Of a stretch of DNA of 64,000 nucleotides, positions 1,581 through 51,287 are shown piece after piece. Source of the DNA: an uncultured Chloroflexia bacterium (GTDB lineage Bacteria > Chloroflexota > Limnocylindria > Limnocylindrales > CSP1-4); assembly GCA_963814315.1 (NCBI GenBank), contig CAWFCG010000001.1:904146-968145 (forward strand). Direction: 5' to 3'. The translations under genes were made by a program, and so were the position numbers. The first letter of the stretch is position 1; each line of letters starts with the position of its first letter. A model generated the notes under the pieces. The model was given only the letters and a program-made list of their open reading frames with translations, made no database searches and was not told the DNA's origin.

Positions 1581-3104
1581 CTACAAGCGGGTCAGAGCGG
1601 CTGCCGCCACCTCGGTCCATTCAAGGATGGCCCCGGTCACCGGCGGGAACAGGCCGATGAGGATGGTGGCCGCGGCAGCCAGGAAGAGGCCTGTCTTGGT
1701 GAATGTGCCGATACTCACCTCTGGCGCGTCATCCTCGGGCTTGCGCATGTACATGTAGACGACGACGCGCAGGTAGTAGAAGGCAGCCATGGCCGCGTTG
1801 AGCATGATGAGCACCGCCAGCAGCGTCGTGCCGCCACCGACCTCCAGGGCGCTCAAGACGACCATGGCCTTGGCGAAGAAGCCCGCCAGCGGTGGGATGC
1901 CGGTGAGTGACAGCAGGAAGATGGTCATCAACAGGGCAGGGATGGCTGCCCGATAACCCAGCCCCGCGAACGTGGTGAGTTGGCTGGTGACACCGGGCCG
2001 CCGTTGCAGCGCCGCCACCACGGCAAACGCACCTAGGTTCATGAAGGCGTACGCGACGCTGTAGAAGAGCACCGCCTGGATGCCATCGGCAGCCACGGCC
2101 GGATCGTCGGCGGTGGCGAAGACGACCAGCCCGACCATGATGTAGCCGGTGTGCGCGATCGACGAGTACGCCAACATCCGTTTGATGTTGTCCTGACCCA
2201 TGGCCGCCAGGTTGCCCACCGTCATGGTGACCGCAGCCAGCACACCGATGATGAGTGCCCACTCTCCGCGCAGCGGCTCCAGCGCCTCCACGAAGAGTCG
2301 CAGGATAAGGGCGAAGGCCGCGACCTTGGGTCCGACCGAGAGGTAGCCCGTGACCGGGGTGGGGGATCCCTGGTAGGCGTCCGGCGTCCAGTAGTGGAAG
2401 GGCACCGCGGCGATCTTGAAGAGCACGCCCACCGTCAGTAACGCCAGGCCCAGGGCCAAGGCCAACGGCAGTGACTGGCTGCCGTCGAGGACCCCGCGCA
2501 GCGTCTCGGCGATCCCCGATACCTGGGTGCTGCCGGTGAAGCCCATCACGAACGCCAGCCCGAAGAGGAAGATGGCGCTGGAGAACGAACCCAGCAGGAA
2601 GTACTTGATGGCACCCTCGGTCGAGAGTCCATCGCGCTTGGCAAAACCGGCCAGGAGATAGCCCGGCAGCACCAGCAACTCCAGGCCCAGGAAGAGGATC
2701 AGCAGGTCCTGGCCACCGGCGATGAGCATGCCGCCGCTGATGGCGAACAACAGCGTGGCTGCGAACTCGGGTAGCGGCAGCTTGCGCGGCACCAGGTAAT
2801 CGGGTGCGAACAGCAGCGACAGCAGTCCGATGGAGATGAGCACGACGTCAAGGAGCGAGGTCATCGAGTCGCGCGTGTAGAGCGCCGGGTCGCCGATCGA
2901 ATGCGGCTCGCTGAACCCGCCGAAGTTCCATGGCGATGGTCCGATGACGATGGTGGCCACCAGCGCCACGGCCAGTCCACCAACGCCCACCGCCATGATG
3001 ATGTCGTCACGTCTGGGTAGGAACAGGTCGATGAGGATGATGCCCAGTGCCAGGCCGACCACGATGAGGAAGGGCAGCAGGGTCACCAGCGCGTCGCCGG
3101 TCAT
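1581..3104 (-). CDS. nuoN: NADH-quinone oxidoreductase subunit N
   Basis: EGAIKYFLLG, FKIAAVPFHYWTPDAYQGSPTP, KRMLAYSSIAH; last gene of the nuo operon. Confidence 0.97.
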   Translation of the reverse strand: MTGDALVTLLPFLIVVGLALGIILIDLFLPRRDDIIMAVGVGGLAVALVATIVIGPSPWNFGGFSEPHSIGDPALYTRDSMTSLLDVVLISIGLLSLLFAPDYLVPRKLPLPEFAATLLFAISGGMLIAGGQDLLILFLGLELLVLPGYLLAGFAKRDGLSTEGAIKYFLLGSFSSAIFLFGLAFVMGFTGSTQVSGIAETLRGVLDGSQSLPLALALGLALLTVGVLFKIAAVPFHYWTPDAYQGSPTPVTGYLSVGPKVAAFALILRLFVEALEPLRGEWALIIGVLAAVTMTVGNLAAMGQDNIKRMLAYSSIAHTGYIMVGLVVFATADDPAVAADGIQAVLFYSVAYAFMNLGAFAVVAALQRRPGVTSQLTTFAGLGYRAAIPALLMTIFLLSLTGIPPLAGFFAKAMVVLSALEVGGGTTLLAVLIMLNAAMAAFYYLRVVVYMYMRKPEDDAPEVSIGTFTKTGLFLAAAATILIGLFPPVTGAILEWTEVAAAALTRL

Positions 3105-4687
3105 GGCAACAGCCCCGTGGCGGCGCTCGCGACCGCGTCAGCGGCCTGGTCGATGACCGCCAGCACCCCAGCTACCGGCGAGGCGGTGAGGTCGAGCACC
3201 AACGCCGGAACGAGGCCCAGCACCACCGTCAGCACTACCAAGGGCGCCAGCGTCGCGGCCTCGAGGGGGTCGACATCGGTGAGCTTGTGGCCGAGGCCCT
3301 TCAGGAAGTCGCTGACATCGCCCATGATGATGTTCTGCACCATGTAGAGCAGATACACGGCCGCGAAGATGATGGTGAAGGCGGCCACGTAGCCCACCCA
3401 CGGCTGCCACGTGACCGCGCCCAGCATGACCAGGAACTCGCCCACGAAGCCGGCCAGTCCAGGCAGGCCCGCCGAGGCCAAGCTGAAGAACACCATCAGC
3501 GTCGCCCACACCGGGATGCGCTGGCCCAGGCCACCCATTCTGGCGATGGTTCGGTCGTGGGTCCGCTCGTAGATGACGCCCACCAGGAGAAAGAGCGCGC
3601 CGGTGATGACGCCATGGGCGACCATCTGGAAGATGGCACCCTGGACGCCCTGCTCGTTGAGCACGAAGATGCCCAACGTGACGAAGCCCATGTGGCTCAC
3701 CGACGAGTAGGCGATGAGCCGCTTGAGGTCGCTCTGGCGGATGGCCACGATAGCGCCGTAGATCATGCCCACGACCGACAGCGCGATGATGAATGGCGCG
3801 AGGTCGACCGTTGCGTCAGGGAAGAGCGGCAGGTTCAGGCGGATGAGCCCATAGCCACCGAGCTTCAGCAGCACGCCCGCGAGGATGACCGAGCCCGCGG
3901 TCGGTGCTTCCGTATGCGCGTCGGGCAACCAGGTGTGGAACGGCCACATCGGAACCTTGATAGCGAAGGCCAGGAAGAAGCCCAGGAAGGCCCAGAACTG
4001 CAACGTCGGGTCGAAGCCGAACTCGACCAGCGTGGTGTAGTCGAAGGCGCCCTGCCATGTGCCAGTCGCCTGTGAGTAGGTCCAGGCGATCGACAGGATG
4101 GCCACCAGCATCAGCAATGAGCCGACCAGCGTGTAGATGACGAACTTGATGGTGGCGTAGATGCGGTTGGCGCCGCCCCAGATGCCGATGATCAGGTACA
4201 TCGGCACCAACACCACTTCCCAGAAGACATAGAAGAGGAAGAGGTCCAGCGACAGGAACACGCCCAGCATGCCCAACTCGAGCACGAGGAACGAGATCAT
4301 GTATTCGCGCACGCGCGTCTTGATAGGACCGAAGGAGGCCAAGATGCTGATCATCGTCAGCAACGTGGTCAGCAACACCAGCACCAGCGAGATGCCGTCC
4401 ACGCCGACCTTGTACTGGATGCCGAAGAAGCCGATCCAGTCTGCCACCTGGACGAACTGGAAGCCAGCCGCCTCGTTGTCGAAGGCCAGCGCTAGCACGA
4501 TCGACAGGACGAAGGCGACCGCCGCCGTGAGCAGTGCACCCCAGCGCATCGTGGTGTCCTGGCGTTCGGCGGAGACCTCCACCCGGAAGAGCCGCAGCAC
4601 CGGGAACGCCAGCAGCAGCACCAGCGCACCGACCAGTGGCGTGAAGATGATGAAGCTGAGGATGTCGAGACGTCCCAGGTCGATCAT
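3101..4687 (-). CDS. nuoM: NADH-quinone oxidoreductase subunit M
   Basis: FYVFWEVVLVPMY, AIKVPMWPFHTWLPDAHTEAPT, LKLGGYG, LIAYSSVSHMG. Confidence 0.97.
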   Translation of the reverse strand: MIDLGRLDILSFIIFTPLVGALVLLLAFPVLRLFRVEVSAERQDTTMRWGALLTAAVAFVLSIVLALAFDNEAAGFQFVQVADWIGFFGIQYKVGVDGISLVLVLLTTLLTMISILASFGPIKTRVREYMISFLVLELGMLGVFLSLDLFLFYVFWEVVLVPMYLIIGIWGGANRIYATIKFVIYTLVGSLLMLVAILSIAWTYSQATGTWQGAFDYTTLVEFGFDPTLQFWAFLGFFLAFAIKVPMWPFHTWLPDAHTEAPTAGSVILAGVLLKLGGYGLIRLNLPLFPDATVDLAPFIIALSVVGMIYGAIVAIRQSDLKRLIAYSSVSHMGFVTLGIFVLNEQGVQGAIFQMVAHGVITGALFLLVGVIYERTHDRTIARMGGLGQRIPVWATLMVFFSLASAGLPGLAGFVGEFLVMLGAVTWQPWVGYVAAFTIIFAAVYLLYMVQNIIMGDVSDFLKGLGHKLTDVDPLEAATLAPLVVLTVVLGLVPALVLDLTASPVAGVLAVIDQAADAVASAATGLLP

Positions 4688-6699
4688 CAGCGTGCCATCA
4701 GCATGAAGAGGGCGGCCATGCCGACCAGGCCCAGAGCGATGCCCAGCGCATAATTCTGGACGCGGCCGGTCTGGATGCGGCGCACGTTGTCACCCACCGA
4801 CGTGGTCACGGCGCCGACACCGTTGACGATGCCATCGATGATCGTGACGTCGAACCACATCACGCCGTTGGCGACGGCGCCACCAAAGCGGTAGAAGATC
4901 AAGTGGTTGAGATCATCGAAGTACCACTTGTTGTAGGACGCGGTGTACAGGAAGCGTGTGAGTCGGTTGCGCCCGGCGATGGCATCGACATCCGCAAGGC
5001 GCGCCTTGCGGTTGAAGAAACCGAAGAACCAGATGCCCACCCCGATGCCAAGCGCGGCGACCGCGACCGAGGCCAGGATCAGCCCGCCATCGACGCCGAT
5101 GAGCTCGTACGCATGGTCATGGACGAGCAGGATCGCGTTGGCTTGGGCGAAGATCGGCTCCAGCCATTGCGTGATCTGGGCGTTGCCCAAAGGCAGGCCG
5201 ATGGCCAGGCCCAGGAAGATGGTCGGGATGACCAGCAGTAGCAACGGCACGGTCATCGAGCGCGGCGATTCGTGGATCCGTGGCTCCACCGCGGGGTCGA
5301 CATGGCTCTTTCCGTAGAAGGTCTTACCCATCAGACGGAACATGTAGAACCCGGTCATGGCCGCCACGATGATGCCGATCAGGAAGACCGGACCGTAACC
5401 GAAGATGAACGACTCGCCCAGGATGGAATCCTTGGAGAAGAAGCCGGCCAGTGGCGGGATCCCGGCCAGCGACAGGGCCGCGATGAGGAAGGTCCAATGG
5501 GTGATGGGAATCTTATTCCGCAGGTCACCCATCTTGTCCATGTCCTGCTCGCCATCGACGGCATGGATGACCGAGCCTGAGCCCAGGAACAACAGGCCCT
5601 TGGTGAAGCCGTGCGCCATGAGGTGGAAGATGGCCGCCACCCAGGCGCCGATGCCAAGGGCCGCGAACATGTAGCCCAGCTGGCTCAACGTCGAATAGGC
5701 CAGCACGCGTTTGATGTCTCTCTGGGTCAAGGCGATCGAGGCGGCCAGGATGGCCGTGAAGATGCCGATGCTCGCTACCAGCAGCATCGTCTCAGGCGCG
5801 GTGGCGAAGATGGGCGAGGTGCGGGCGATGAAGTAGACCCCGGCGTTGACCATGGTGGCGGCGTGGATGAGGGCGGAGACTGGCGTCGGGCCTTCCATCG
5901 CATCTGGTAGCCAGACGTGGAAGGGGAACTGGGCCGACTTGCCGGCCGCGCCAACGAAGAGCAGCAGCACCACGATGTCGCGTATCCACACGTCCGCGCT
6001 GTTCTCGAAGCCCATGAACGAATCCACCACGTTCATCGTGCCCGTCAGCAGGAAGACGCCGATGATGCCGACGATGAAGCCCTGGTCGGCGACGCGGTTG
6101 ACGAGGAACGCCTTCTTCGATGCCAGCGCCGGAGCCCGCCGCTTGTACCAGAAGCCGATGAGCAGGTAGCTCGACAGGCCCACCAGCTCCCAGGCCGCGA
6201 AGATGACCAGATAGCTGTCCGCCAGGACCAGCAGCAGCATGCTGAACATGAACAGATTGAGGTAGGCGAAGAAGCGCCAACGCGCGTCGTCATGTGCCAT
6301 ATAGCCGATGCTGTAGATGTGCACCAGCGCGCCGATCCAGGTGACCACGATGACCATCACCGCGGTGAGGTTGTCGAAGAGGAGGCCGAACTCGACCTGC
6401 AGGTCGCCCACCGGGATCCAGGTGTAGAGCGTCGCCCCGATGCGCTCGGGGTCGGCGGCCGTCAGCGACGAGAACGCCAGGGCGGTGGCGATGGCCGTGG
6501 CCGCCAGGACCGCGGTGATGGAGATGATCCAGGGTCGATGACCCAGGCGGCGACCGACCAGACCCGTGAGCAGGAAGCCGGCCAGCGGCAGCAGCAACAG
6601 CAGCAGCATCGCCACGACCTGGTAGTCCGACGCCTGCGTCAGCACAAGCGTCTCGGCGCCGTGGTCGGTGGCGGCCTCGGCGTTGAAGATTAGATCCAT
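4687..6699 (-). CDS. nuoL: NADH-quinone oxidoreductase subunit L
   Basis: WELVGLSSYLLIGFW, GKSAQFPFHVWLPDAMEGPTPVSALIHAATMV, QTGRVQNY. Confidence 0.97.
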   Translation of the reverse strand: MDLIFNAEAATDHGAETLVLTQASDYQVVAMLLLLLLPLAGFLLTGLVGRRLGHRPWIISITAVLAATAIATALAFSSLTAADPERIGATLYTWIPVGDLQVEFGLLFDNLTAVMVIVVTWIGALVHIYSIGYMAHDDARWRFFAYLNLFMFSMLLLVLADSYLVIFAAWELVGLSSYLLIGFWYKRRAPALASKKAFLVNRVADQGFIVGIIGVFLLTGTMNVVDSFMGFENSADVWIRDIVVLLLFVGAAGKSAQFPFHVWLPDAMEGPTPVSALIHAATMVNAGVYFIARTSPIFATAPETMLLVASIGIFTAILAASIALTQRDIKRVLAYSTLSQLGYMFAALGIGAWVAAIFHLMAHGFTKGLLFLGSGSVIHAVDGEQDMDKMGDLRNKIPITHWTFLIAALSLAGIPPLAGFFSKDSILGESFIFGYGPVFLIGIIVAAMTGFYMFRLMGKTFYGKSHVDPAVEPRIHESPRSMTVPLLLLVIPTIFLGLAIGLPLGNAQITQWLEPIFAQANAILLVHDHAYELIGVDGGLILASVAVAALGIGVGIWFFGFFNRKARLADVDAIAGRNRLTRFLYTASYNKWYFDDLNHLIFYRFGGAVANGVMWFDVTIIDGIVNGVGAVTTSVGDNVRRIQTGRVQNYALGIALGLVGMAALFMLMAR

Positions 6700-6705
6700 C
6701 AGCCG

Positions 6706-7017
6706 CTACTCCTTCATCGACGCGTACTCGTCGACGAGCGGCGTCCTGCGGATGCGGTAGATGGCGATGACGATGGCCAGGCCCACCGTGGCCTCACCGG
6801 CCGCCACGGCGATGACGAAGAGCGCGATGGTGGACGCCTGTGCCGCCAGCTCGGGCGTGAAAGCGCCGAAGGCGATGATCGACAGGTTGACCGCGTTGAG
6901 CATCAGCTCGATGGACATCAGCATGGCGATGGCGTTGCGCTTGGCCAGGAATCCGAAGGTGCCGATACCGAAGAGCAGCACCGACAGGACCAGGTACGCC
7001 TCCAGCGACTGGCTCAT
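6706..7017 (-). CDS. nuoK: NADH-quinone oxidoreductase subunit K
   Basis: MSIELMLNAVN, VAAGEATVGLAI; 103 aa. Confidence 0.96.
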   Translation of the reverse strand: MSQSLEAYLVLSVLLFGIGTFGFLAKRNAIAMLMSIELMLNAVNLSIIAFGAFTPELAAQASTIALFVIAVAAGEATVGLAIVIAIYRIRRTPLVDEYASMKE

Positions 7018-7550
7018 ACGTGGTCTTCCTCGTCGCGCCGGGCCAGATAGAGCCCGCCGATGATGGCTGCCAACAGCAGCACGCCCAGCACCTCGAAGGC
7101 GAAGATGTATTCGTCGAACAGCGTCAGCGCGACATCCCGTACCTGCGCCGCGTAGATCTGGCCGTTATGTGGCCAGTCGGTAAGCAGGACGGCGGCGATC
7201 ATGAGGCCCACCAGCAGCACGGCCGCGATGGCAGCCACCCACCACTGTCGCTGGAACACCAGTTTGGCGGGGCCGCGCTTGGTCGAAGTGATCATCACTG
7301 CGAACAGGATGAGCACGGCGATGGCGCCGATATACACCAGGACCTGGCTGATGGCCAGGAAGGGACTGCCCAGCAGGCCGTAGATACCGGCCAGCCCGGC
7401 AAACGACAGGATGAGCCACAAGGCTGAACGGATGACGTCCCGCCCCAGCACCACGAGCAAGGCCGAGCCCAGCATCACGCCGGCCAACGCCAGGAAGACA
7501 AGGTCGTCCCAGCGCCAGTCGAGATACGGAACCGTCTCCGGTAGCCCCAC
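7014..7550 (-). CDS. nuoJ: NADH-quinone oxidoreductase subunit J
   Basis: QVLVYIGAIAVLILFAVM, FEVLGVLLLAAIIG; GTG start at 7550 after GAGGGA (start corrected from the ORF track). Confidence 0.93.
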   Translation of the reverse strand: MGLPETVPYLDWRWDDLVFLALAGVMLGSALLVVLGRDVIRSALWLILSFAGLAGIYGLLGSPFLAISQVLVYIGAIAVLILFAVMITSTKRGPAKLVFQRQWWVAAIAAVLLVGLMIAAVLLTDWPHNGQIYAAQVRDVALTLFDEYIFAFEVLGVLLLAAIIGGLYLARRDEEDHV

Positions 7551-7566: not shown

Positions 7567-10161
7567 CTACTTGTGGTGGATGTGTGCCGCGCCATTGCCG
7601 GTCGCCCCGACAGTAGCGCCATCAGCTCCCGTGGTTGCCGTGCCGCCGGCACTGCTGGCCAGACCGGGCGGCAGCATGGGCAGCAGCCGCTGGTGCGGGA
7701 CGTCACGCCCGTCGGCTTGGGCTCGAGCGAGCCAATCACGCTCGCGGCGGACGTAGCTCAGCTCGGTATCTCGCTCCATGGCGGCCAGTGCGATGAGGTC
7801 GATCTGCGGTTCGGCGCGCAATTCATGCGCCAGCTCGAAGTCAGGCCCGCAGCGCAAGGCGTCGTAGGGGCAGGCATCGACGCAGATGCCGCACAGGATG
7901 CAACGCAATTCATCGACCTCGTACCGCTCCAGCACGCGCGGCTTGGGCATGAGCGCGCCGGTGGGACAAGTCTCGGCGCAACGGCCGCAGGACACGCACG
8001 GCGTGGTGTTCAGGCTCATGTCCAGCGGCGTGGTCACCAGCGTGTCGAAGCCGGTGCGCATGAAGTCATAGCAGGCCGCGCCGACGACCTCCTTGCAGAC
8101 GTTGGCGCAACGGCCGCAGTCGATGCAGCGTGATGGCTCTCGCAGGATGAAGGCGTGGCTGTCATCGCGGATGTAGTCGTGGTTGTAGCCGGTAAAGCGG
8201 TTCTCCTCGACGCTGCGGAAGGACAGACCGCTACGCTTTGGCTCGAGCGTCTGCAGCGTGGTGCCGTACTCGATACCCTGGCGGCGCAGATCGCAGAAGC
8301 CGATGGCCTCGCAGGTGCACTGCAGGCAGCGCGCCGACTCGCCCATGACCTCCTGCTGCGTATAGGGGATCTCGTACTCGATGTACGAGTCGTTCCGTTC
8401 CTCGGCCGGCATCGACTTCAAACGGATCCGGGGCTGCTTGACCTCGTCGGTGTAGGGCACGATGGAGAGGAACTCGGGCTGTGGCTCGGCCAGTGTCTGG
8501 CGCGTCCGGATCTCGGCGAGGTCCTGGCCCTGAAGATAGGCGTCGATGGCGTAGCTGGCGCGTCGGCCTTCGGCGACGGCCTCGACCACCGTGGCCGCTC
8601 CGGTGCGCACATCCCCCGCCCCGAAGACGCCGGCACGTCCGGTGCCGAAGGTGACCGCGTCGGCATCGAGCCGAGAGCGCTTGTTCTTCTCGATCCCCGC
8701 CGCGCCTTGATCGAGCCATGTCAGATCAGGCCCTTGGCCGATGGCCAGCAAGACGCGGTCACAGTCGATGATGAACTCGGTGCCTGCCACGGCCTGGGGT
8801 CGACGGCGGCCGGATGCGTCCGGTTCACCCAGCGCCATCCGTTGGAACTCGACCCCGGTCACCTTGTCGTTAGCATCACTAACGACTCGCGTGGGCGATG
8901 CCTGGAAGATCGCTCGAGCGCCCTCTTCGAGCATCTCGTGGACCTCACCTGCAGCCGGCATATCCTTCATGTCACGGCGATAGACCAGCGTGACCTCGGT
9001 GCAGCCCTGCCGGACCGAGGTTCGTGCGCAGTCCATGGAGGTGAAGCCGCCACCGATGACGACGACGCGCTTTCCCCTGTGGTCAGGGTAGGGGAGTCCC
9101 AGTGTGGCGATGCGGAGGTACTCAAGGCCGTCGATGACGCCGTCCGCATCCTCACCGGGGATGCCCAGCTTGTTGGTGTCATAGCAGCCGATGGCCACCA
9201 GGACCGCATCGAAGCCCTGGTTCTGAAGGTCGTCGATGCTGAAGTCGACTCCCAGCTCAGCGCCAGTGACGAGCTTGGCGCCCAGGCCCCAAACGGATTC
9301 GTACTCGGCCTCCAGGATCCGTTCCTTGGGCAGTCGGTACTCCGGGATGCCGTAGCGGAGCATGCCACCGGCCGCCGGGTCGCGTTCGAAGACGGTCACG
9401 GCATGGCCGTTGAGCGAGAGGTAATAGGCCGCTGACATGCCGCTGGGGCCGGAGCCGATGACGGCCACGCGCTTGCCCGTCGGTGGTTGTGGCTCGAACG
9501 GCGTGGGCGGCTTGGCGCCGGCTGCTTGTGCCTTCAGCACCTGGTCGCCGGCGTAGCGGTGGCTGTCGCGGATGGCGATGGCCTCCTCCACCTCGTCGCG
9601 GCGACAGTGCTCTTCACAAGGCGCTGGGCAGACGCGCCCGAGCACCGAAGGGAAGGGGATGGTGCGTTTGAAGATGCGCGCCGACTCGAGGAAATCGCCC
9701 TCGGTGTTGGCCTTCAGGAAGCCCGGGATGTCGATGTGGCTGGGGCACTTGTTCTGGCAGGGTGGCAGGCAGTAGGCGTTGTGGTCGCTGAAGATCAGCT
9801 CCAGGTTGGTCTTGCGGATCTGGCGCAGACGTGGTGTCTGCGTCCTCACCACCATGCCGGTTTCAGCCTCACGCGAGCAGGAGATGGTGGGCGTCTCTTC
9901 GCCCTCGACCTCGACCACACACATGCGGCAGGCGCCGAAACCCGGCAGCTTGGGCTCGTAGCAGAGCGTGGGCACCTCGATGCCGTGGTCTCGGCAGACT
10001 TCCAGGACGGTCTGTCCGACGCGGCCGGTCAGCGTGCGACCGTCGATTTCGATGCTGAACTCGGGTGCGACCTGACGGCGCTGCGGCGACTGCGTGGTCA
10101 GCAGGCGCTCGGCGGCCTCGTCGGGGGCGGGCGGGCTGGTCTGGGGCAGCGTGTCGGTCAT
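7567..10161 (-). CDS. Fusion: NuoG/HydA-type [2Fe-2S] domain + GltD/NfnB-like FAD/NADPH oxidoreductase + NuoG-type [4Fe-4S] motifs + C-terminal half of NuoI (StnC/SfrB-like)
   Basis: PTLC..GACRMCVVE..SC; PCQNKCP..GRVCPAPCEEHC; GSGPSG; GGGFTSMDCARTS; VYRR; RCLQCTC..C; CIDCGRCANVC; CVSCGRCAETCP; then YEVDELRCILCGICVDACP..DFELA. ATG at 10161 overlaps the nuoF stop. Confidence 0.9.
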   Translation of the reverse strand: MTDTLPQTSPPAPDEAAERLLTTQSPQRRQVAPEFSIEIDGRTLTGRVGQTVLEVCRDHGIEVPTLCYEPKLPGFGACRMCVVEVEGEETPTISCSREAETGMVVRTQTPRLRQIRKTNLELIFSDHNAYCLPPCQNKCPSHIDIPGFLKANTEGDFLESARIFKRTIPFPSVLGRVCPAPCEEHCRRDEVEEAIAIRDSHRYAGDQVLKAQAAGAKPPTPFEPQPPTGKRVAVIGSGPSGMSAAYYLSLNGHAVTVFERDPAAGGMLRYGIPEYRLPKERILEAEYESVWGLGAKLVTGAELGVDFSIDDLQNQGFDAVLVAIGCYDTNKLGIPGEDADGVIDGLEYLRIATLGLPYPDHRGKRVVVIGGGFTSMDCARTSVRQGCTEVTLVYRRDMKDMPAAGEVHEMLEEGARAIFQASPTRVVSDANDKVTGVEFQRMALGEPDASGRRRPQAVAGTEFIIDCDRVLLAIGQGPDLTWLDQGAAGIEKNKRSRLDADAVTFGTGRAGVFGAGDVRTGAATVVEAVAEGRRASYAIDAYLQGQDLAEIRTRQTLAEPQPEFLSIVPYTDEVKQPRIRLKSMPAEERNDSYIEYEIPYTQQEVMGESARCLQCTCEAIGFCDLRRQGIEYGTTLQTLEPKRSGLSFRSVEENRFTGYNHDYIRDDSHAFILREPSRCIDCGRCANVCKEVVGAACYDFMRTGFDTLVTTPLDMSLNTTPCVSCGRCAETCPTGALMPKPRVLERYEVDELRCILCGICVDACPYDALRCGPDFELAHELRAEPQIDLIALAAMERDTELSYVRRERDWLARAQADGRDVPHQRLLPMLPPGLASSAGGTATTGADGATVGATGNGAAHIHHK

Positions 10162-11486
10162 GACTGCACGGCACCGGCTAGTCGGATGGGTTGGCAGACA
10201 CCGGCGGGGCATTCGCCGCGGGTGATGTGGGCCTCGAACTCAGAGGCGAAGTATCGCATCCCACTCAGCAGCGGGTTGGAGGCGTCAGCCTCAAGTCCGC
10301 AGAGGGCGGCTGCGCGCACATCGGTGGCGAGGTCGCCCAGCAGATCGGCGTCAGAAGGTCGAGCGTGGCCGGAGCAGAAGCCCGCGCCCAGTTCTGCCAT
10401 GCGGCGCGTGCCGATGCGACAGGGGATGCTCTTGCCACAGGCGCTGTCGTTGAGGTAGCGCGTCATCAGGGTGGCCACATCGACGAGGCAGGCTCGCTCA
10501 TCGAGCACCAGCACGGTTCCGGAGCCGGCGAGGGCGCCCGCCTCACGCAAGGCTCCGTAGCTCAGCGCTGTGTCGAGGGCATCGGCGGGCAGAAAGCCGC
10601 CAGTGGGGCCGCCTACCAGCACGGCCTTCAGCGAACCCTGCACGAAGCCCCCGGGACCGTCGAGGATCTCGCCGATGGTGACGCCCAACGGCACCTCCAC
10701 GATGCCTGGCTTGCGCACGGCGCCACCCAACTGGATCAACGTGGTGCCGGGTGCCTCCGACGTACCCAACGAGGCATAGGCGCCGGCGCCGTGGCTGATG
10801 ATCCAGGGCACGGCCGCCAGCGTCTTGACGTTGTTGACGACGGTGGGCATGCCCCACAGGCCCGCGCGTGACGGATAGGGTGGGCGCTGGTCGGGCTGGG
10901 CACGGCGGTTCTCCAGTGCCCGCAGCATGACCGTCTCCTCGCCCACCACGAAGGAGCCGCTGACCTCCCGGACATCGACCTGCAGCGGCCAGCCGGTCGG
11001 GCTCGCCTCGGAGCCGATGTAGCCGCGCTCCTCAGCCTCCTCGATGGCCATCCGCAGCCGCTCTGCCGCGATCGACGAGGATGCGGCGACGGCGATGATG
11101 GCGTGTTCTGCTCGGACGGCCCAGGCGGCGACGGCCACGCCTTCCACGACCGCGTGTGGGTCCCGTTCCATCAGCGTGCGGTCGACTTGCGCCCCGGGGT
11201 CGGCCTCGAAGCCATTGGCCACGAGATAGCGACGCGTCTCTGGCTGGGTCGCACAATCTCGCCATTTGGGACCTGTGGGGTAGCCGGCCCCGCCGCGACC
11301 GCGCAGCCCTGACTCGGTCACCATGCTGATGACGGCTTCAGGCGTGAGTTCGGCGATGGCTTTGCGGTAGGCGGCCCAGGCCCCGCCCGCCTCGGCGGCC
11401 TGGAGATCCTCGACCTCGCCTTGAGCGGCGCGCGCCAGGAGGACGGAGGGCCAGTCGCGGACGCCGCTCAGGATGGGCAGGCTCAT
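10158..11486 (-). CDS. nuoF: NuoF/HydB-like FMN subunit (divergent)
   Basis: SGLRGRGGAGYPTGPKW, GEET, PTVVNNV, GGPTGG, CGKSIPC..C, C-terminal HI..ECPAGVC. Confidence 0.9.
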   Translation of the reverse strand: MSLPILSGVRDWPSVLLARAAQGEVEDLQAAEAGGAWAAYRKAIAELTPEAVISMVTESGLRGRGGAGYPTGPKWRDCATQPETRRYLVANGFEADPGAQVDRTLMERDPHAVVEGVAVAAWAVRAEHAIIAVAASSSIAAERLRMAIEEAEERGYIGSEASPTGWPLQVDVREVSGSFVVGEETVMLRALENRRAQPDQRPPYPSRAGLWGMPTVVNNVKTLAAVPWIISHGAGAYASLGTSEAPGTTLIQLGGAVRKPGIVEVPLGVTIGEILDGPGGFVQGSLKAVLVGGPTGGFLPADALDTALSYGALREAGALAGSGTVLVLDERACLVDVATLMTRYLNDSACGKSIPCRIGTRRMAELGAGFCSGHARPSDADLLGDLATDVRAAALCGLEADASNPLLSGMRYFASEFEAHITRGECPAGVCQPIRLAGAVQS

Positions 11487-12322
11487 GCGGCCTCCCCCTG
11501 TGGCACGCTGGCACGAAGGGCCGCGGCGATGGTGGCGGCATCCTGCGCGCTGGACTTCGGCAGCGCTTCACCATCGATCTCGACATAGGCGCTGCCGGAC
11601 GAGGTGCCATGGCAGTCGACCGTGCTCAGGCGCACCGCACCGTCGGGGCTCACGCCGCCGACCTCGCAGCCGAGATGCTCGCGGAAGGCGGCTAGCACGC
11701 GACCGCCGCCCAGCAGTGTGCACTGCGTGCAGCGACAGACGCGCACCACGTGGCCGACCGGCGGCTCGAAGTGCAGGTGCGGGTAGGAGGTAGCAGTGCC
11801 ATACAGCTCGGCGTACCAGGTGCCGGTCTGGTGGGCGATGTGCTGCAGCGCCGCCACCGGCAGATGCCCATAGGCGCCCTGGGTCTGCTCCAGGATGGCC
11901 AGGGCGTTGCGCGGCCGGTAGTCGTTGGCGGCCAGGATATCGTCGAGCGCTGCCAGGTCGATCAGCTCGAAAGGGTCGAAGGTGCGGTCCGGCACCGGTC
12001 GGCCGGAGCGGCGCAGGGCCAATTCCTCACGACGTTCGGCGTACTGTTCGGATGCTCCCCAGTGGACGTGGTAACGGTTGCGCGTATCGACGCCACCCAT
12101 GTCGATACACTCGATGGGGCAGGCCGCGGCACACTGGAAACAAGTCTCGCACTTGAGCGCGCCCGCTTCGTCATACAGCAGCACCAGACGGCCACGATGG
12201 CGCGGCGAGATATCGTTGACGACCTCTGGGTACTGCACCGTCACCTTGGGCCGGAACACCTGGCCGACAGCGAAGACTATGCCCCTGACGATGGACAGGC
12301 CGGGAATCCTGTCCGACCTCAC
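11483..12322 (-). CDS. Fusion: N-terminal half of NuoI + NuoE/HydC-like thioredoxin-fold [2Fe-2S] domain
   Basis: GTG at 12322 overlaps the nuoH stop (GTGA), with AAGGA upstream. NuoI part: VTVQYPE..PRHRGR..G..KCETCFQCAAACP. NuoE part: ILEQTQ..YGHLP..ELYGTATSY..VRVCRCTQC..G..DG...VDCHG. Confidence 0.88.
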   Translation of the reverse strand: MRSDRIPGLSIVRGIVFAVGQVFRPKVTVQYPEVVNDISPRHRGRLVLLYDEAGALKCETCFQCAAACPIECIDMGGVDTRNRYHVHWGASEQYAERREELALRRSGRPVPDRTFDPFELIDLAALDDILAANDYRPRNALAILEQTQGAYGHLPVAALQHIAHQTGTWYAELYGTATSYPHLHFEPPVGHVVRVCRCTQCTLLGGGRVLAAFREHLGCEVGGVSPDGAVRLSTVDCHGTSSGSAYVEIDGEALPKSSAQDAATIAAALRASVPQGEAA

Positions 12323-13713
12323 GAGAGATATTCCTTGATGATGATGATGGCCGCCGCCGTGACGAAGATGTTCAGCAGCGCCGCCGGCATCAACCACTTC
12401 CAGGCGAAGTTCATCATCTGGTCGATGCGGACGCGCGGGTAGGTCGCGCGCATGAGCACGAACAGCGCCACCAGCAGGAACGACTTGCCCAGGAACCAGA
12501 TGATGCCCATCAGGGCCTCGAAGCTGAAGAGCGCCCAGATGCTCACAGTCCCCATCAGCAGCAGGTTGGCCAGCACGAAGCCGACCAGCAGCGACTTGAT
12601 GAAGCCCCAGGAGGACTTGACCATCCAGAGCAGTGCCGTCAACGCCAGCGTCAGGCCGGCCGGCACCAGCAGTGGGATGGCCAGCAGCCACGATCCCAAT
12701 GAGCCAGGGTCGATGGCGGCCGCATCGACCGGTGTGGTGATCCCCAGGACACCCAGCAACGGATCGATGTCGAACAGGCCGTGGGGACCGCCCAGGAACA
12801 GCGTCACCGTCAGCGCCGAGAGGATGAAGACGTTCACGTACTCGGCGAAGAAGAAGAAGCCGAAGCGCATGCCGCTGTACTCGGTGGCAAAGCCGGCCAC
12901 CAGCTCCGAGTCGGCTTCGGTGTAGTCGAATGGTGTTCGGCCGGCCTCAGCAGTGGCGGCGATGAAGAAGATGATCAGCGCCAGCGGCTGCTGCCAGGCG
13001 TACCAGGCGAGGATGCCGCCTGACTGGTTCTCGATGATCTGGCCGAGGTTGAGCGTGCCGGCCAGCAGGACCACACCCATGACGCCAAGGATCAGCGGCA
13101 GCTCGTAGCTGATGACGGCGGCCGCGGCGCGCATGCCGCCCAGCAGCGAGTACTTGTTGTAGCTGGCCCAGCCGGCCATCATCAGGCCCACCACACCCAG
13201 CCCGCCGACGGCGAAGAAGTAGAGCAGGCCCAGTTCCATCTCGTAGCCGACCATGCCCGGCGCGAAGGGGATCACCAGCAGCGTCAGCACCGAGGCCAGG
13301 AAGGCCACCGCGGGCGCCAGCGTGAAGACCGGAATGTCCACGCCGCGGGGCGTGTAGTCCTCCTTGGACAGTACCTTGAGACCGGCCATGGTCGAGGCCA
13401 GTGTGCCCCACGGCCCGGTGCGGTTGGGGCCGATGCGCAGGTTCATCATGGCGATGATCTTCAGCTCCATGAAGATGATCACGAACGCTGCTGGGACCGT
13501 GAACAACAGGATGCCGGTGGCAGCGGCGATGAAGCGCAGGATCTCGAAGTTATCCTGAGCGGTGTCGATCAGCCAGCCGGTCACCCAGGGTCCGACCCCG
13601 ATGATCCACAAGACCGCGCCGGCCACGGCCACGATGGTGATCAGCGCGATGAGTGGCAGCAGGAGCTTGCCGCCCAGACTGAGCCTGTTCCAGGAGTTGT
13701 TGGCGGCACTCAC
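12319..13713 (-). CDS. nuoH: NADH-quinone oxidoreductase subunit H (enlarged, 464 aa)
   Basis: RIGPNRTGPWG, NKYSLLGGMR, ISYE, RTPFD..EADSELVAGFATEYSG, RATYPRVRIDQ. Confidence 0.96.
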   Translation of the reverse strand: MSAANNSWNRLSLGGKLLLPLIALITIVAVAGAVLWIIGVGPWVTGWLIDTAQDNFEILRFIAAATGILLFTVPAAFVIIFMELKIIAMMNLRIGPNRTGPWGTLASTMAGLKVLSKEDYTPRGVDIPVFTLAPAVAFLASVLTLLVIPFAPGMVGYEMELGLLYFFAVGGLGVVGLMMAGWASYNKYSLLGGMRAAAAVISYELPLILGVMGVVLLAGTLNLGQIIENQSGGILAWYAWQQPLALIIFFIAATAEAGRTPFDYTEADSELVAGFATEYSGMRFGFFFFAEYVNVFILSALTVTLFLGGPHGLFDIDPLLGVLGITTPVDAAAIDPGSLGSWLLAIPLLVPAGLTLALTALLWMVKSSWGFIKSLLVGFVLANLLLMGTVSIWALFSFEALMGIIWFLGKSFLLVALFVLMRATYPRVRIDQMMNFAWKWLMPAALLNIFVTAAAIIIIKEYLS

Positions 13714-14933
13714 TTGTCGATCCCACCCATGACCGGGTCCAGGCTGGCCATGATGGCCATGATGTCCGCGATCAGGTGGCCACGAGTCAGGTCACCCACG
13801 GCCTGCAGGTTGAAGTACGAAGGGTCATGGATGCGGAAGCGGAAGGGTTGGTCGGAGCCGTCGCTGATGGCGTACGAGGCGTACTGACCGCGCGGTGACT
13901 CGAGCGCGGCGAAGGCGCGTCCAGGGGGTACTCGGATGAGGCGCGGCAGCTTGGCCATGACCGGGCCGTCGGGAATCTGGTCCAACACCTGATCGATGAT
14001 CCGCAGGGACTGCTTGATCTCCTCGATGTGCAACAGGTAGCGCGCGTAGGAGTCGCCATCGGTTCGCGTGGGCACGTCGAAGTCGAGCTCCGGGTAGACG
14101 CTGTAGGGATGCGCGCGGCGCACGTCGTATGGCACACCCGTGGCCCTCAAGGGTGGTCCGCTCATGCCGAAGCGCAGCGCAGTAGCCCGGTCGAGCACGC
14201 CCAGGCCCTTGGTGCGATTGACGAAGATCTCGTTCTCGTTGAGCAGCTTCGCTTGCGAGTCGATCAGCTGGCCGGCGCGACTCATCCAATCGCCCAGGCG
14301 GCTCATGAAGTCGTGGTTGAGGTCGCCGTTTACGCCGCCGATGCGCAGGTAGTTGAAGAGCAGCTTCTGGCCCGTCAGCGCGGCCAGCATCTCCACGATC
14401 TCGTCGCGTTCGGCAAAGCCATAGAGGATCGGCGTGATGCCGCCCAGGTCGAGCGCCAGCCATCCGATGAAGAGCGCGTGGCTAGCGATGCGGTTGAGCT
14501 CCCAGGCCAGCACTCGGATGTAGTCGGCACGCCGGGGCACCGCCAGGTCCAGCAGCTTCTCCGCGGTCAGCACCGGCAGCGCTTCGCTGAACATGGAGGC
14601 GACGTATTCGAGCGGGTCGCAGTTGCTGATGGCGTGATGCCAGTCGCCGTGCTCGCAGATCTTCTCCACGCCGCGATGGAGGTAGCCCAGCACGGGATCA
14701 AGGTCGACCACCTTCTCACCGTCGATCTTGAGCACCACGCGGAGCACGCCGTGGGTGGAGGGGTGCTGCGGGCCCAGGTTGAGGAACATCTGGCCGTCCT
14801 CAAGCTGGTAGAACTCGGCCTCGCGCTCGGTGCGTGGCGTCAGCGGCGGGATAGCGTCGTAGATGGTGGCTGGGGTCTGCACCAGCACATCCGGATCGTC
14901 GAGGGAGGGGATGCTCTCGCGGTCGGTCGTCAT
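13710..14933 (-). CDS. nuoD: NADH-quinone oxidoreductase subunit D
   Basis: [36 protein letters not shown]. Confidence 0.96.
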
Positions 14934-15562
14934 GCCGGCGCCCCACCCTCGCCAAGCGCGCCCTTGTCGACCGAGCCACTCGCGGCGATGACCAGGCGCT
15001 CGCCGTCAGGCCCGATCACGGCGCCCGCCCCCGGGCTGGTGCGGATGACCGGGTCACGACGCACGTCGCCGGGTGCGAACGGAGTCTCCATGTGGCGGAT
15101 GCCTTCGCCCGGCGCACGCGAGGCGTCATCGGGCATGGCGAAGTCCTTGCGCAGCGGGAAGGCCAAGTAGTCGGGCGGCATGTAGATGCGCCGCAGGTCC
15201 CGGTTGCCCTCGAACTCGATGCCGAACATGTCATAGGCCTCGCGTTCGGCCCACTCGGCTCCTGGCCACAGGAAGGTGACCGACGGCACTCGCGGATCAT
15301 CGCGGGAGAGCCCATCGGCGATGACCCGTAGCCAGTCGGAGCTCAGGGGTGACCACAGGTGGTAGACCACCTGCATGGTCACGCCGGTGTCTACGCCGCA
15401 CATGTCTGCCAGCAGCTCGAATCGCAGGTCGCCGTCCTCGCGCACGGTACGCATGAGCGTAGGCAGCGAGGCCGGCCACGTGACCAGCTCGATGGTGTCT
15501 CCCATGGCCTCTGCGGGCACCACCAGATGATCGCCGAGGCGGTCATCGAGCTGGCGGAGCAT
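14930..15562 (-). CDS. nuoC: NADH-quinone oxidoreductase subunit C
   Basis: [27 protein letters not shown]. Confidence 0.94.
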
Positions 15563-15590: not shown

Positions 15591-16280
15591 CTAGACGCCG
15601 TCAGGGACGGCGGGGCCGACCCGGCGGTCGTTCCATTGGCCGCGACGTTCCAGGATGGCCTGCTGCAGCTTCAGCATGCCGTAGATGAGGCCCTCCGGCC
15701 GGGGTGGGCAGCCGGGCACATAGACATCCACGGGCAGGAGCCGGTCGATGCCTTCGACGGTGGCGTAGGAACGCTTGTAGCGGCCGCCCGAACAGGTGCA
15801 ATCGCCCATGGCCACGCACCATTTGGGCTCCGGCATCTGCTCCCATAGGCGAACCAGCGGCCCCGCCATCTTGGTCGTCAGCGTGCCGGCCACGATGAGC
15901 ACATCAGCCTGCCGCGGACTGGCCCGGAAGGGGAACATGTTGAAGCGGTCCATGTCGTTGACGGGGGTTGCGGCCGACATCATCTCCATGGCGCAGCAGG
16001 CCAGCCCCGAGAGCAGCGGCCAGAGGCTGTTGGCACGTAAGTAGTCGAGCAGCAGATCAGCATGGGTGGGGATGACGTCGAGAGCGCCCCAGCGTCCGTC
16101 ATCACCCTTGTCGGCCAGCTCGAGCTGCTTGAGATGATCGATGGTGGCGGGTTGGCCGCTGTAAGCGTCGGGGTCGGCTGGCGTCCAGGTGGTATTGGGC
16201 AGCACGATGGTGCCGGGCCTCCTGTCGCTGGTGGCGACAGCCGTCACGTCGGCAGCCGCACCACGTTTCTTCAGCGCCAC
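15591..16280 (-). CDS. nuoB: NADH-quinone oxidoreductase subunit B
   Basis: [33 protein letters not shown] (N2 ligands intact). Confidence 0.97.
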
Positions 16281-16630
16281 GTCAGCAGGCCCTTGCGCGC
16301 GGCGTACAGCACTGACAGCTCCATGATCCCGACGAAGAGGAGCATGCCCAGGAAGCCGCCCAGCAGCAGGTCATCGAAGACCAGCGCCCACAGCGCGATG
16401 AGCACCACCTCGATGTCGAAGGCCACGAACAGCAGGGCGTACAGGTAGAAGGACAGGCCGAAACGGCCATGCGTATCGCCGTATGTGTCGATGCCCGACT
16501 CGTAGGGCAGGCCTTTGTGCCCATCACCCTTGCGGCGGTGTGTGATGAGCCACGACAGGCCGATGGTGAGGAACACGAAGCTGATGCCGGCGATAGCGAA
16601 GCCGATGACGTACCAGAGCGGAGCGGTCAA
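16271..16630 (-). CDS. nuoA: NADH-quinone oxidoreductase subunit A
   Basis: PYESG, FYLYALLFVAFDIE; TTG start after AAGGA. Confidence 0.94.
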   Translation of the reverse strand: MTAPLWYVIGFAIAGISFVFLTIGLSWLITHRRKGDGHKGLPYESGIDTYGDTHGRFGLSFYLYALLFVAFDIEVVLIALWALVFDDLLLGGFLGMLLFVGIMELSVLYAARKGLLTWR

Positions 16631-47152: not shown

Positions 47153-47913
47153 GTTCCTGGATCTCCTCCTATTGGGGTCGGCCACCGGTCCGACATGGAA
47201 CCGGTCTGCCACTTGGCCGCGGCGCTGCGGTCGTCCGTCTCGCGGCAACGAGCGCGGATGGATCCACGACGGGTGTGGTCACCCAGTCCCGGTTCCCCAC
47301 ACCCTCGTGACGCGAGACATGCGCACGCAACGGCCGTGACCGCTCAAGCGTGGCGACATTCTAGACTGATGCGTGGTCGTTGTATGGTCGCAGTGCGGCG
47401 CTATCTCGGATACGGTGCCTCGTACCGATGATGCCGGCGCGCCAAAGCGACATCAGTGTGTTGACCGGGCGCACCGACGGGCTTGGTGATAGCAGTGATC
47501 CGCACCGCTGGGGTGATCCGCGGGACCAGCACTTCAGGGGACATGCTCACGGCGAGTGCCTGGTGCAGTATGATAGGTAGCGACGTCTCGAATGCCAGAC
47601 GCCGCGAGCGCCCCGGGCGTGTGCGGACAGTGACCCGACGTGGCCCTGTGATCACCCGGTGCGGCGCGCTCAAGGACGGTCTACCGCCACCACAAGGCGA
47701 GGGGCCACGTTCCATTCTGGACGCGATCAGTCGTGATCAGACTCCGGTGAAGCCCGCTTGGGCCCGGTGTCACTGAGGAGATCGACACATCAGCAACGAC
47801 CGGACACGAACATCGCGATGCGCGCTGGGCTCAGCCCAAGGACGCGACCGTCGCTTCGAGTGCCCAGCCTCGCAGAGTCGCGAACCGCGGCTCGTACCAC
47901 ACAGGAGTCCTGC

Positions 47914-51240: not shown

Positions 51241-51287
51241 CCCTGGCCGGGTCAGACCGCGCTACATCGGACGCTGCTAAGGTGAAG

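Follow-up and report, generated by a model that had tools for sequence, protein, structure and literature searches.

Respiratory complex I is by textbook account specific for NADH, and the prevailing view is that a soluble diaphorase gave rise, in a single acquisition, to its NADH module. The closest solved counterparts of the genes described here are the soluble three-subunit enzymes NfnABC and StnABC. In the available excerpts of the two structure papers on these enzymes, electrons in NfnABC of C. saccharolyticus follow the path FAD-A7-A6-A3-A2-A1-B1-FMN (PMC11829005; FAD, flavin adenine dinucleotide; FMN, flavin mononucleotide). Both papers also describe a two-cluster branch that runs toward an Fdh-like domain and dead-ends there (PMC10482914, PMC11829005); in Stn this branch is called a non-functional remnant, and both the tetramer and an active complex require the Fdh-like domain (PMC10482914). 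The minimal bifurcating core is given as [B1-FMN-C1], and non-bifurcating homologues are said to be without B2-B5 (PMC11829005). Here we describe three adjacent genes, called X, F and Y, from an uncultured Chloroflexia bacterium of soil (assembly GCA_963814315.1, contig CAWFCG010000001.1, positions 904,146 to 968,145; this whole stretch of 64,000 nucleotides is the window). They combine parts of such a soluble enzyme with parts of complex I.

In the window, X, F and Y stand between nuoH and nuoJ of a single nuo operon, which runs on the minus strand from 16630 to 1581 in the order A-B-C-D-H-X-F-Y-J-K-L-M-N. The position between nuoH and nuoJ is that of nuoI in 11-subunit operons; in 14-subunit operons, nuoI follows nuoEFG. 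Judged from the sequence, X-F-Y probably belongs to a complex I that does not bifurcate and has both an FMN site and an FAD site of the GltD type; it would be a proton-pumping NAD(P)H:menaquinone oxidoreductase.

From the observed gene anatomy, homologies and conservation of X-F-Y, we infer how this enzyme would be assembled, which cofactors it would hold, which nucleotides it would prefer, and how electron flow would run and protons be pumped. X, F and Y would form the electron-input head of the only respiratory complex I of the organism. A soluble three-gene cassette of the NfnABC/StnABC (Bfu) kind appears to sit inside nuoI. Its C-like gene would have been fused behind the first half of NuoI to give X, and its A-like gene would have lost the Fdh-like domain and been fused in front of the second half to give Y. 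The two NuoI halves would meet on NuoB/D/H and bind the [4Fe-4S] clusters N6a and N6b, so that both polypeptides would tie the head to the membrane arm. By homology there would be two nucleotide sites, FMN in F for NADH and FAD in the GltD module of Y, the latter probably for NADPH. Electrons from NADH would pass through the FMN and a [2Fe-2S] cluster, and those from NAD(P)H through the FAD and the GltD clusters, both reaching a shared junction cluster in Y. From there they would take the branch that dead-ends in the soluble enzymes, leading here to N6a/N6b, to N2 in NuoB and to menaquinone, and an ordinary JKLMN arm would pump the protons.

Anatomy of X, F and Y

The three genes and their domains are located in the window as follows.

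11483..12322, minus strand: gene X (279 amino acids), NuoI N-terminal half and NuoE-like domain; GTG start
12068..12295, minus strand: NuoI N-half of X (residues 10-85), motif C58-x2-C61-x2-C64-x3-C68-P; TIGR01971
11522..11956, minus strand: NuoE-like domain of X (residues 123-267); Pfam 2Fe-2S_thioredx, E 1.2e-23
10158..11486, minus strand: nuoF-like gene F (442 amino acids), FMN/NADH subunit; Pfam Complex1_51K, SLBB, NADH_4Fe-4S
7567..10161, minus strand: gene Y (864 amino acids), the feature under study; ATG at 10161, TAG at 7567-7569
9835..10062, minus strand: NuoG/HydA-type [2Fe-2S] domain of Y (residues 34-109; C67, C78, C81, C95); Pfam Fer2_4
8527..9783, minus strand: GltD/NfnB-like module of Y (residues about 127-545); Pfam Fer4_20 and Pyr_redox_2, AlphaFold2 (AF2) model, YRR alignment
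7963..8328, minus strand: three four-Cys motifs of Y, C612/615/617/623, C679/682/685/689 and C722/725/728/732; alignment to 9bov_A and 8oh5_C, Pfam Fer4_Nqo3
7810..7938, minus strand: NuoI C-half of Y (residues about 742-784), R-C754-x2-C757-x2-C760-x3-C764-P, then the NuoI-like tail GPDFELA; TIGR01971

Y consists of a NuoG-type [2Fe-2S] domain, an inserted GltD/NfnB-type FAD/NAD(P)H module, three four-Cys motifs and the C-terminal half of NuoI, in this order. Behind the GltD module lie a C-x2-C-x-C-x5-C motif, an Nqo3-type ferredoxin domain (two CxxCxxCxxxC(P) motifs) and one more CxxCxxCxxxCP. Pfam positions are numbered on an open reading frame (ORF) of 881 amino acids, equal to the 864-amino-acid numbering plus 17. 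On this scale Fer2_4 matches 51-126 (E 1.4e-20), the NuoG His-cluster motif 133-149 (its start only), Fer4_20, the GltD/DPD N-terminal cluster domain, 148-227 (E 3.6e-17), Pyr_redox_2 248-549 (E 1.5e-29), Fer4_Nqo3 689-754 and Fer4 764-787. The initial annotation, made from the letters alone, had read a NuoG-type [2Fe-2S] domain, a GltD/NfnB module and [4Fe-4S] motifs into Y, and Pfam agrees on all of them in the 864-amino-acid ORF; the strings it named, GSGPSG, GGGFTSMD and VYRR, are all present in the translation. It was also right that the large molybdopterin-like domain of NuoG is missing, as Y gave no Pfam match to Molybdopterin or Molydop_binding, and that half of NuoI stands in its place (TIGR01971 positions 71-113 at 7810-7938, E 1.4e-10). 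The NuoG model TIGR01973 scores 91.5 bits on Y against a cut-off of 470. The top NCBIfam model is PRK12814, 'putative NADPH-dependent glutamate synthase small subunit' (E 5.7e-163, under its cut-off).

The GltD module holds H127/C131/C135/C139, C178/C182/C186 and H201, the FAD motif GSGPSG, a second Rossmann motif GGGFT, and Y394-R395-R396. We compared 23 fused Y sequences from several classes. The [2Fe-2S] cysteines, H127/C131/C135/C139, C178/C182/C186, the FAD and GGG motifs, Y394-R395-R396, R276 (equivalent to StnC R239) and the motif of the NuoI half are invariant in all of them. Eleven of the 12 cysteines in the three four-Cys motifs are likewise invariant in 23/23, with C685 kept in at least 90%; in an alignment of eight Y sequences all 12 are invariant. 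Residue-by-residue alignment shows the three motifs to be homologues of the clusters that NfnA and StnC carry between their GltD and Fdh-like domains. Y keeps motifs for all clusters of the NfnABC path and of its branch except the one in the Fdh-like domain, and this is where the NuoI half begins.

Two histidines of the GltD module stand out. H127 occupies the place at which GltD-type proteins have the first Cys of the N-terminal motif. His201 (window 9559-9561) occupies the position of StnC Lys170 and is invariant in the 23 fused forms; a pattern scan found His here in 76/80 related loci. These 80 (L040-L119), used for all related-locus counts, are the best 80 of 579 confirmed loci. Candidatus Limnocylindria/Limnocylindrales is the name given in record titles of related loci. 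Lys170 of StnC is described as ligand-like at the FAD-proximal cluster and as strictly conserved, with Glu in NfnB, in the accessible part of PMC10482914. The position of StnC C114 is Ile145 in Y. Judging by these residues, each of the two GltD-domain clusters of Y may have one His ligand.

The YRR motif of GltD-family proteins binds the 2'-phosphate of NADPH. Five solved, NADPH-dependent relatives have it in common with Y, and the alignment covers NfnA (9bov_A and 9n5u_A), StnC (8oh5_C) and A. brasilense GltD, which upholds the link to NADPH enzymes drawn at the outset. The AF2 model of Y, built on a 23-row alignment, is confident over residues 33-556. In this region the template modelling (TM) score, target-normalised, is 0.78-0.80 to NfnB/NfnL/GltD, and Foldseek gives 35-38% identity to NfnABC/StnABC chains. 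Over residues 557-804 the predicted local distance difference test (pLDDT) value falls below 50.

X is the N-terminal half of NuoI fused to a decayed NuoE-type domain, and its gene lies directly before nuoF. NuoI models cover residues 10-85 of X, with the profile coverage ending past the first cluster motif, and NuoE/HoxE/FdsG models cover residues 123-267. Positions 1-66 of the NuoI profile TIGR01971 match X (E 1.2e-12), complementing the match of positions 71-113 to Y; both are under the family cut-off. By BLASTP, X is 34% identical to canonical NuoI (E 3e-13), and the tail of Y matches the second half of canonical NuoI (E 5e-9). The two CxxCxxCxxxCP motifs of NuoI exist, but they are spread over two polypeptides. 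All four cysteines of the half in X are invariant in 7/7 X homologues, and the C-half motif of Y is present in 80/80 related loci. A search of the genome (91% complete) with the TIGR01971 profile found no intact NuoI. With its N-half in X, its C-half in Y and no intact copy, nuoI is therefore split, and the E-F-Y cassette lies between its halves. The gene layout is exactly that expected if a three-gene operon had been inserted in frame into nuoI of an A-B-C-D-H-I-J-K-L-M-N operon.

F is reduced to the NuoF core. Pfam finds Complex1_51K, SLBB and NADH_4Fe-4S only, with no Fer4 or thioredoxin-like domain, and the N- and C-terminal cluster domains of BfuB/StnB (B2-B5) are absent. On the nuoF_fam model it reaches 362.6 bits, where the cut-off is 558.65. 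Its motifs for FMN and NADH (GxGGxG...K, N91, G-E-E) are invariant over nine sequences from several classes, and F is full length in all lineages examined. The N3 motif in the window is C-x2-S-x2-C: the second Cys is replaced by Ser (residue 353), and the three invariant cysteines are kept. In the 80 related loci the second Cys of this N3/B1 motif is Thr in 57, Ser in 15, Ala in 1 and Cys in 4; the motif was not found in 3. Replacement of Cys by Thr, Ser or Ala is a pattern typical of [3Fe-4S] sites. All four cysteines of N3 are kept in the f3 family and in Ktedonobacteria. The ligands of the NuoE-type [2Fe-2S] cluster (N1a/C1) in X decay stepwise. The window has three of the four cysteines, the fourth being Ser; relatives have fewer or none, the f2 and f4 families being among those with fewer; and X of Ktedonobacteria is without the thioredoxin-like half. 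The conserved role of the E part may perhaps be only to tether F to the NuoI half.

The E part of X, F and Y are each nearest to solved StnABC/NfnABC chains. Y aligns near end-to-end, from residue 34-37 to about 765, with NfnA of C. saccharolyticus (9bov_A, E 2.3e-164), StnC of S. ovata (8oh5_C, E 1.5e-147) and NfnA of T. sibiricus (9n5u_A, E 4.7e-141), a likeness far beyond chance; complex I NuoG chains match Y at the [2Fe-2S] domain only. Y stops about 100 residues past the last shared motif, and StnC and NfnA have 1172 and 1178 amino acids. F scores 386.7-367 bits with NfnB/HydB/StnB chains versus 283.1 bits with the best complex I NuoF, and it aligns to residues 113-526 of the 584-residue 9bov_B. 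The best solved chain for the E part of X is StnA (8oh5_A, E 8.6e-20). The resemblance of the E/F/(G+GltD) trio to StnABC, first proposed from motifs, is thereby confirmed.

Electron paths and their alternatives

Several points weigh against a two-site, pumping NAD(P)H:menaquinone oxidoreductase. The Fe-S wire from the FAD to the NuoI clusters is traced by sequence homology, because the AF2 model cannot be relied on for residues 557-804. A chain of clusters connecting two nucleotide sites would be prone to bring NADPH and NAD+ into equilibrium, and the two-site reading offers no gate. The preference for NADPH over NADH is suggested by a motif and by homologues. In this order, 73 of the 77 loci in which the motif was found have Thr, Ser or Ala in place of the second Cys of N3, and since this Cys is replaced and the NuoE cluster has decayed, the NADH branch may be altered or weakened. 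As a speculation, the altered N3 site could serve as a valve against futile transfer from NADPH to NAD+.

The pairing of the NuoI halves is to be weighed as well. When X 1-105 and Y 715-815 were predicted as a complex, the score was 0.36 (0.36, 0.38 and 0.36 in the runs; best control 0.00), with a partner pLDDT of at least 64 and an agreement of contacts between runs of at least 93%. The mark that it passes is passed by 58/80 solved complexes and 2/110 mismatched pairs; passes scoring 0.60 or less comprise only 7 of the 80 solved complexes, plus both passing mismatches. The pass may reflect mere likeness, because NuoI structures have been solved, and it argues weakly for the pairing. In addition, the motifs of Y at 722 and 754 resemble a self-contained two-cluster ferredoxin: Pfam Fer4_7 spans both, and so does the BLASTP match to NuoI 52-121. 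Pairing the motif of Y with that of X is the most economical reading of the two sequences.

If the last two motifs of Y are read as one self-contained dicluster domain, X-F-Y could be a soluble Stn-like enzyme that merely lies inside the operon, with ferredoxin-like ends of its own, and the complex I would be without NuoI and an NADH module. We regard this as very improbable. X holds the N-terminal segment specific to NuoI and only one motif, the tail of Y follows the NuoI profile just where X leaves off, and the genome has no other NuoI to go with ten other nuo genes that are intact and conserved. The B-X-F-Y and A-C-D-H clusters of Ktedonobacteria, described below, are also complementary.

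A second alternative is a complex I that oxidizes NADPH only, in which the GltD/FAD site of Y works, F and the E part are mainly a scaffold tying the head to NuoI, and NADH is oxidized elsewhere. The replaced N3 Cys (Ser in the window) and the loss of the NuoE [2Fe-2S] ligands, extending to the whole thioredoxin-like half of E in Ktedonobacteria, fit such an enzyme, as does the complete invariance of the ligands and nucleotide motifs in the GltD module. The conservation of F speaks against it: the FMN/NADH motifs are invariant, N3 keeps three invariant cysteines (all four in the f3 family and Ktedonobacteria), and the subunit is full length in every lineage examined. We consider an NADPH-only enzyme rather unlikely and prefer the reading with both nucleotide sites.

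Whether the head bifurcates bears on a third alternative, an enzyme of the 'Nuo-Bfu' type that would oxidize NAD(P)H and reduced ferredoxin together. Bfu modules inside nuo clusters have been predicted, as far as the accessible text of PMC9304861 goes, and F resembles BfuB-type chains more than it does NuoF. F has neither the N-terminal nor the C-terminal domains in which B2-B5 are bound, however, the ligands of C1 are not conserved, and B1 is short of one Cys in this order; bifurcation is tied to these parts in both structure papers (PMC10482914, PMC11829005, as excerpted). Because the parts that define bifurcating Bfu enzymes, namely the extra domains of F and the C1 ligands, are missing, the module is not expected to bifurcate. 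By its sequence it is Stn-derived and not a bifurcating Stn, and the confurcating type is the least probable of the alternatives considered.

The last alternative concerns the direction of flow. The enzyme could exchange NADH and NADPH, or run in reverse and reduce NADP+ with quinol and the proton-motive force (pmf), in place of PntAB. Complex I can in principle run in both directions, the ancestry of the module lies with NADPH:NAD+/ferredoxin transhydrogenases, and PntB was not found in the genome (91% complete). On the other side, NuoH has one match in the whole genome (at the same completeness), so that the role of sole complex I in an aerobic-type respiratory operon would fall to this enzyme; glucose-6-phosphate dehydrogenase is encoded in the genome and is at hand as an ordinary source of NADPH; and the bifurcation parts that make Stn/Nfn energetically useful are absent. 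The sequence itself is silent on the direction. We judge a transhydrogenase or reversed enzyme to be unlikely, and return to the forward, pumping oxidoreductase with an FMN and an FAD site.

Operon, relatives and origin

The remaining genes of the operon, nuoA, B, C, D, H, J, K, L, M and N, are all present and intact by Pfam.

16271..16630, minus strand: nuoA; Pfam Oxidored_q4, E 2.7e-25
15591..16280, minus strand: nuoB; Pfam Oxidored_q6, E 2.2e-27, with the N2 cluster motifs including GCPP seen in the translation
14930..15562, minus strand: nuoC; Pfam Complex1_30kDa, E 4.1e-36
13710..14933, minus strand: nuoD; Pfam Complex1_49kDa, E 8.4e-85
12319..13713, minus strand: nuoH; Pfam NADHdh, E 9.3e-99
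7014..7550, minus strand: nuoJ (178 amino acids); Pfam Oxidored_q3, E 3.2e-34
6706..7017, minus strand: nuoK; Pfam Oxidored_q2
4687..6699, minus strand: nuoL; Pfam Proton_antipo_N, Proton_antipo_M, Proton_antipo_C
3101..4687, minus strand: nuoM; Pfam Proton_antipo_M
1581..3104, minus strand: nuoN; Pfam Proton_antipo_M

Start and stop codons overlap by 4 nucleotides at each of nuoH/X, X/nuoF and nuoF/Y. The start of nuoJ is probably the GTG at 7550, which lies 12 nucleotides downstream of an AGGAGG that overlaps the stop of Y. A canonical NuoG elsewhere in the genome was ruled out. The best match to the NuoG profile (L001, G000:C1:511358-516445) is an FdsA-like formate dehydrogenase with a full molybdopterin domain and an adjoining FdsB-like gene, and L002 (G000:C3:1339922-1343536) is a HoxF/HoxU-like pair in the same genome. 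An assembly artefact or a pseudogene was ruled out too, as the stop-free fused ORFs recur in most relatives and on long contigs.

The module is widespread in its class. A Y-like ORF is found in 24/24 genomes of the genus and in 16/16 of a second family with genomes of about 1.1 Mb, a few of them broken by contig ends or single stops, and 41/41 close relatives have a Y match. In the class sample, 140/151 genomes match at E 1e-150 or better (109/111 among the high-quality ones); this tally contains 7 unpublished genomes, without which it is 133/144. A phylum sample gave a match at E 1e-120 or better in 69/301 genomes. Outside the class, the fused type, taken as coverage to residue 778 or beyond in an ORF of about 800-810 amino acids, occurs in 30/268 other Chloroflexota; contig ends truncate the gene in 3 further genomes, and another 4 carry long forms or others of the soluble type. 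The holders outside the class are Ktedonobacteria: Thermogemmatispora carboxidivorans (WP_052888283.1), Dictyobacter vulcani (WP_151754733.1) and metagenome-assembled genomes of Ktedonobacterales. Proteins 75-85% identical to that of the window are labelled Deferrimicrobium and Polarisedimenticolia; we read these labels as noise of binning or labelling rather than as spread to other phyla.

The gene order is conserved with the proteins. H-X-F-Y-(J)-K is kept in the 80 related loci wherever the contig extends, and Y reaches residue 790 or beyond in all of them. In a sister family of the class (G044) the genes are divided between two loci, B-D-X-F-Y and C-H-K-L-M-N, and that genome has one NuoH and no intact NuoI. 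As a separate observation, a 461-amino-acid ORF lies between Y and nuoK in the f4 family (L034, 9963-11348), where the window has the 178-amino-acid nuoJ; this ORF could be either a longer NuoJ or an additional gene.

Ktedonobacteria carry the variant genes in another layout. Three sets are present in Thermogemmatispora (G285): a canonical nuoA-N that includes E, F, G and an intact I (L122, a complete canonical operon confirmed in G285 only), nuoB-X-F-Y and nuoA-C-D-H; its other loci are L028 (C1:1296000-1314000) and L120 (C1:585000-604000). G309 has the same two four-gene clusters (L032, L123), plus a NuoH beside an intact NuoI. The two small clusters complement each other exactly, with B and the NuoI halves in one and A, C, D and H in the other, and no J-N genes follow the nuoA-C-D-H cluster, which is followed by unrelated genes instead. 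These genes may encode a pump-less NAD(P)H:quinone oxidoreductase of eight subunits, or else the J-N subunits may be shared. NuoB of the window is 57% identical to the variant set of Thermogemmatispora versus 50% to the canonical set of the same genome; the corresponding values are 43% versus 36% for NuoD and 42% versus 37% for NuoH. X-F-Y is thus tied to a distinct lineage of complex I. In the Dictyobacter-type loci L033 (G393:C1:902000-921000; ORFs 7803-9917 and 10418-12826) and G212:C38, we noted two tandem Y-like genes after nuoB-X-F; the second copy has a shorter N-terminus (704 amino acids).

The best full-length relatives of Y among 1.84 billion representatives are long soluble forms of 1000-1370 amino acids with 40-47% identity, those named coming from Acidobacteriota and Bacillota. 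A tree was calculated from the first 760-780 residues of 12 fused and 46 long forms (LG+G4, quick search, midpoint root). To choose the 46, we took the first 12 of 113 candidates and thereafter every third one; 10 fragmentary or multi-stretch rows were dropped. All 12 fused forms lie on one side of a branch with a Shimodaira-Hasegawa-like approximate likelihood ratio test (SH-aLRT) support of 100, among the long soluble NfnA/StnC-like forms. In this tree the fused form of Y has a single origin. The initial annotation had proposed that a soluble Stn-like enzyme was recruited as the head of complex I; the tree supports this origin, and what has not survived of that enzyme is its bifurcating parts. 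A soluble-type set of E, F and a long StnC-like gene (ORF of about 1210 amino acids) was seen beside a second E-F-G-like set in a small-genome Chloroflexota lineage of 0.9-1.4 Mb (L037, G375:C29:23000-41000). A set of this kind may be the sort of donor operon that was inserted into nuoI.

Taken together, the layout, the tree and the distribution allow a wider reading, which we put forward tentatively and with less confidence than the oxidoreductase itself. One in-frame insertion of a soluble Nfn/Stn-type operon into nuoI would have made a second, independent head of complex I, giving a pump that burns NADPH as well as NADH or, reversed, makes NADPH from quinol and pmf. An entire class of Chloroflexota that abound in soil and fresh water would have no other complex I. 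Where Ktedonobacteria combine the head with NuoA, B, C, D and H alone, the result would be an NAD(P)H:quinone oxidoreductase that is anchored in the membrane without pumping and works alongside a normal complex I.

X-F-Y looks like a second acquisition of an NADH module, from a different family of soluble enzymes. The seams are visible: NuoI, a core subunit, has been divided, and a part of the newcomer is joined to either half. Should the FAD site function as in the relatives, NADPH oxidation would be coupled directly to proton pumping. For a class that is widespread in soil and fresh water, energy yield and redox balance would then have to be modelled differently, and the 'dead-end' cluster branch of Nfn/Stn could be a live exit. 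Y is called 'FAD-dependent oxidoreductase', 'formate dehydrogenase major subunit', 'NADPH-dependent glutamate synthase beta subunit-like...', '4Fe-4S dicluster domain-containing protein', 'hypothetical protein' or 'uncharacterized protein' in its source annotations, and none of those seen marks it as a Nuo subunit; metabolic reconstructions may for this reason score such genomes as being without NuoG and NuoI. The question is open to direct test because Thermogemmatispora and Dictyobacter, which carry the module, are cultured.

The remainder of the window is chromosomal housekeeping (purH, clpB, dnaJ, lon and transporters). It also has an ORF of 1118 amino acids at 51282-54638 on the plus strand, which matches no Pfam family at E 1e-8 or better, and upstream of it, at 47758-49788 on the plus strand, a 676-amino-acid protein with an N-terminal NYN ribonuclease domain.

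Comparison with known systems

The main texts of the open-access and bioRxiv literature searched gave no description of a nuo operon in which NuoI is split or NuoG carries a GltD module. The complex I of Thermomicrobium roseum is listed as 'nuoA-E,H-N' in the accessible text of PMC6776052.

NfnABC and StnABC (9bov, 9n5u, 8oh5) have the same three-part set, a NuoE-type part, a B-like FMN subunit and a subunit with [2Fe-2S], GltD and [4Fe-4S]-chain parts. They are the best solved matches for the E part, F and Y, and YRR and the Arg of StnC R239 are common to both. Unlike them, Y is without the Fdh-like C-terminal domain, F is without the B2-B5 domains, and the C1 ligands have decayed. StnC Lys170 is replaced by an invariant His and C114 by Ile in Y, X and Y are fused to NuoI halves, and the genes lie within a nuo operon.

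The canonical peripheral arm of complex I (T. thermophilus Nqo2/1/3/9) shares the operon position and the surrounding subunits, as well as the [2Fe-2S] domain, the Nqo3-type ferredoxin domain, the NuoF fold and both NuoI motifs. Here, in contrast, NuoI is carried on two proteins, the NuoG-type Y has no large domain and holds a flavoprotein insert, the N1a ligands are incomplete, N3 is C-x2-S/T-x2-C, and F is closer to Bfu B subunits.

Two further systems are similar in architecture. In the predicted Nuo-Bfu of Schut et al. 2022 (PMC9304861), a Bfu-type ABC module in the middle of a nuo cluster likewise replaces NuoEFG. As described in the accessible text, that system belongs to Deferribacteres, Proteobacteria, Planctomycetes and Nitrospirae, its BfuB has the extra clusters, and confurcation of NADH and ferredoxin is predicted; this text mentions no GltD module and no split NuoI. 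In the Mbx-like complexes of Degli Esposti 2015 (PMC4758237, likewise as far as its accessible text goes), a GltD-type NAD(P)(H) flavoprotein stands at the NuoI position of a complex-I-like membrane module. There, the flavoprotein substitutes for NuoI in an Mbx/Mrp-type complex that is ferredoxin-driven and reduces NAD(P)+, whereas here NuoI is kept in halves, F and the E remnant are present, and the membrane arm is that of a normal Nuo. As far as these excerpts extend, Bfu modules in nuo clusters had already been predicted (PMC9304861) and a GltD-related flavoprotein at the NuoI position already noted (PMC4758237); the split NuoI, together with a GltD-bearing NuoG-type subunit in a nuo operon, has no counterpart in the literature searched.

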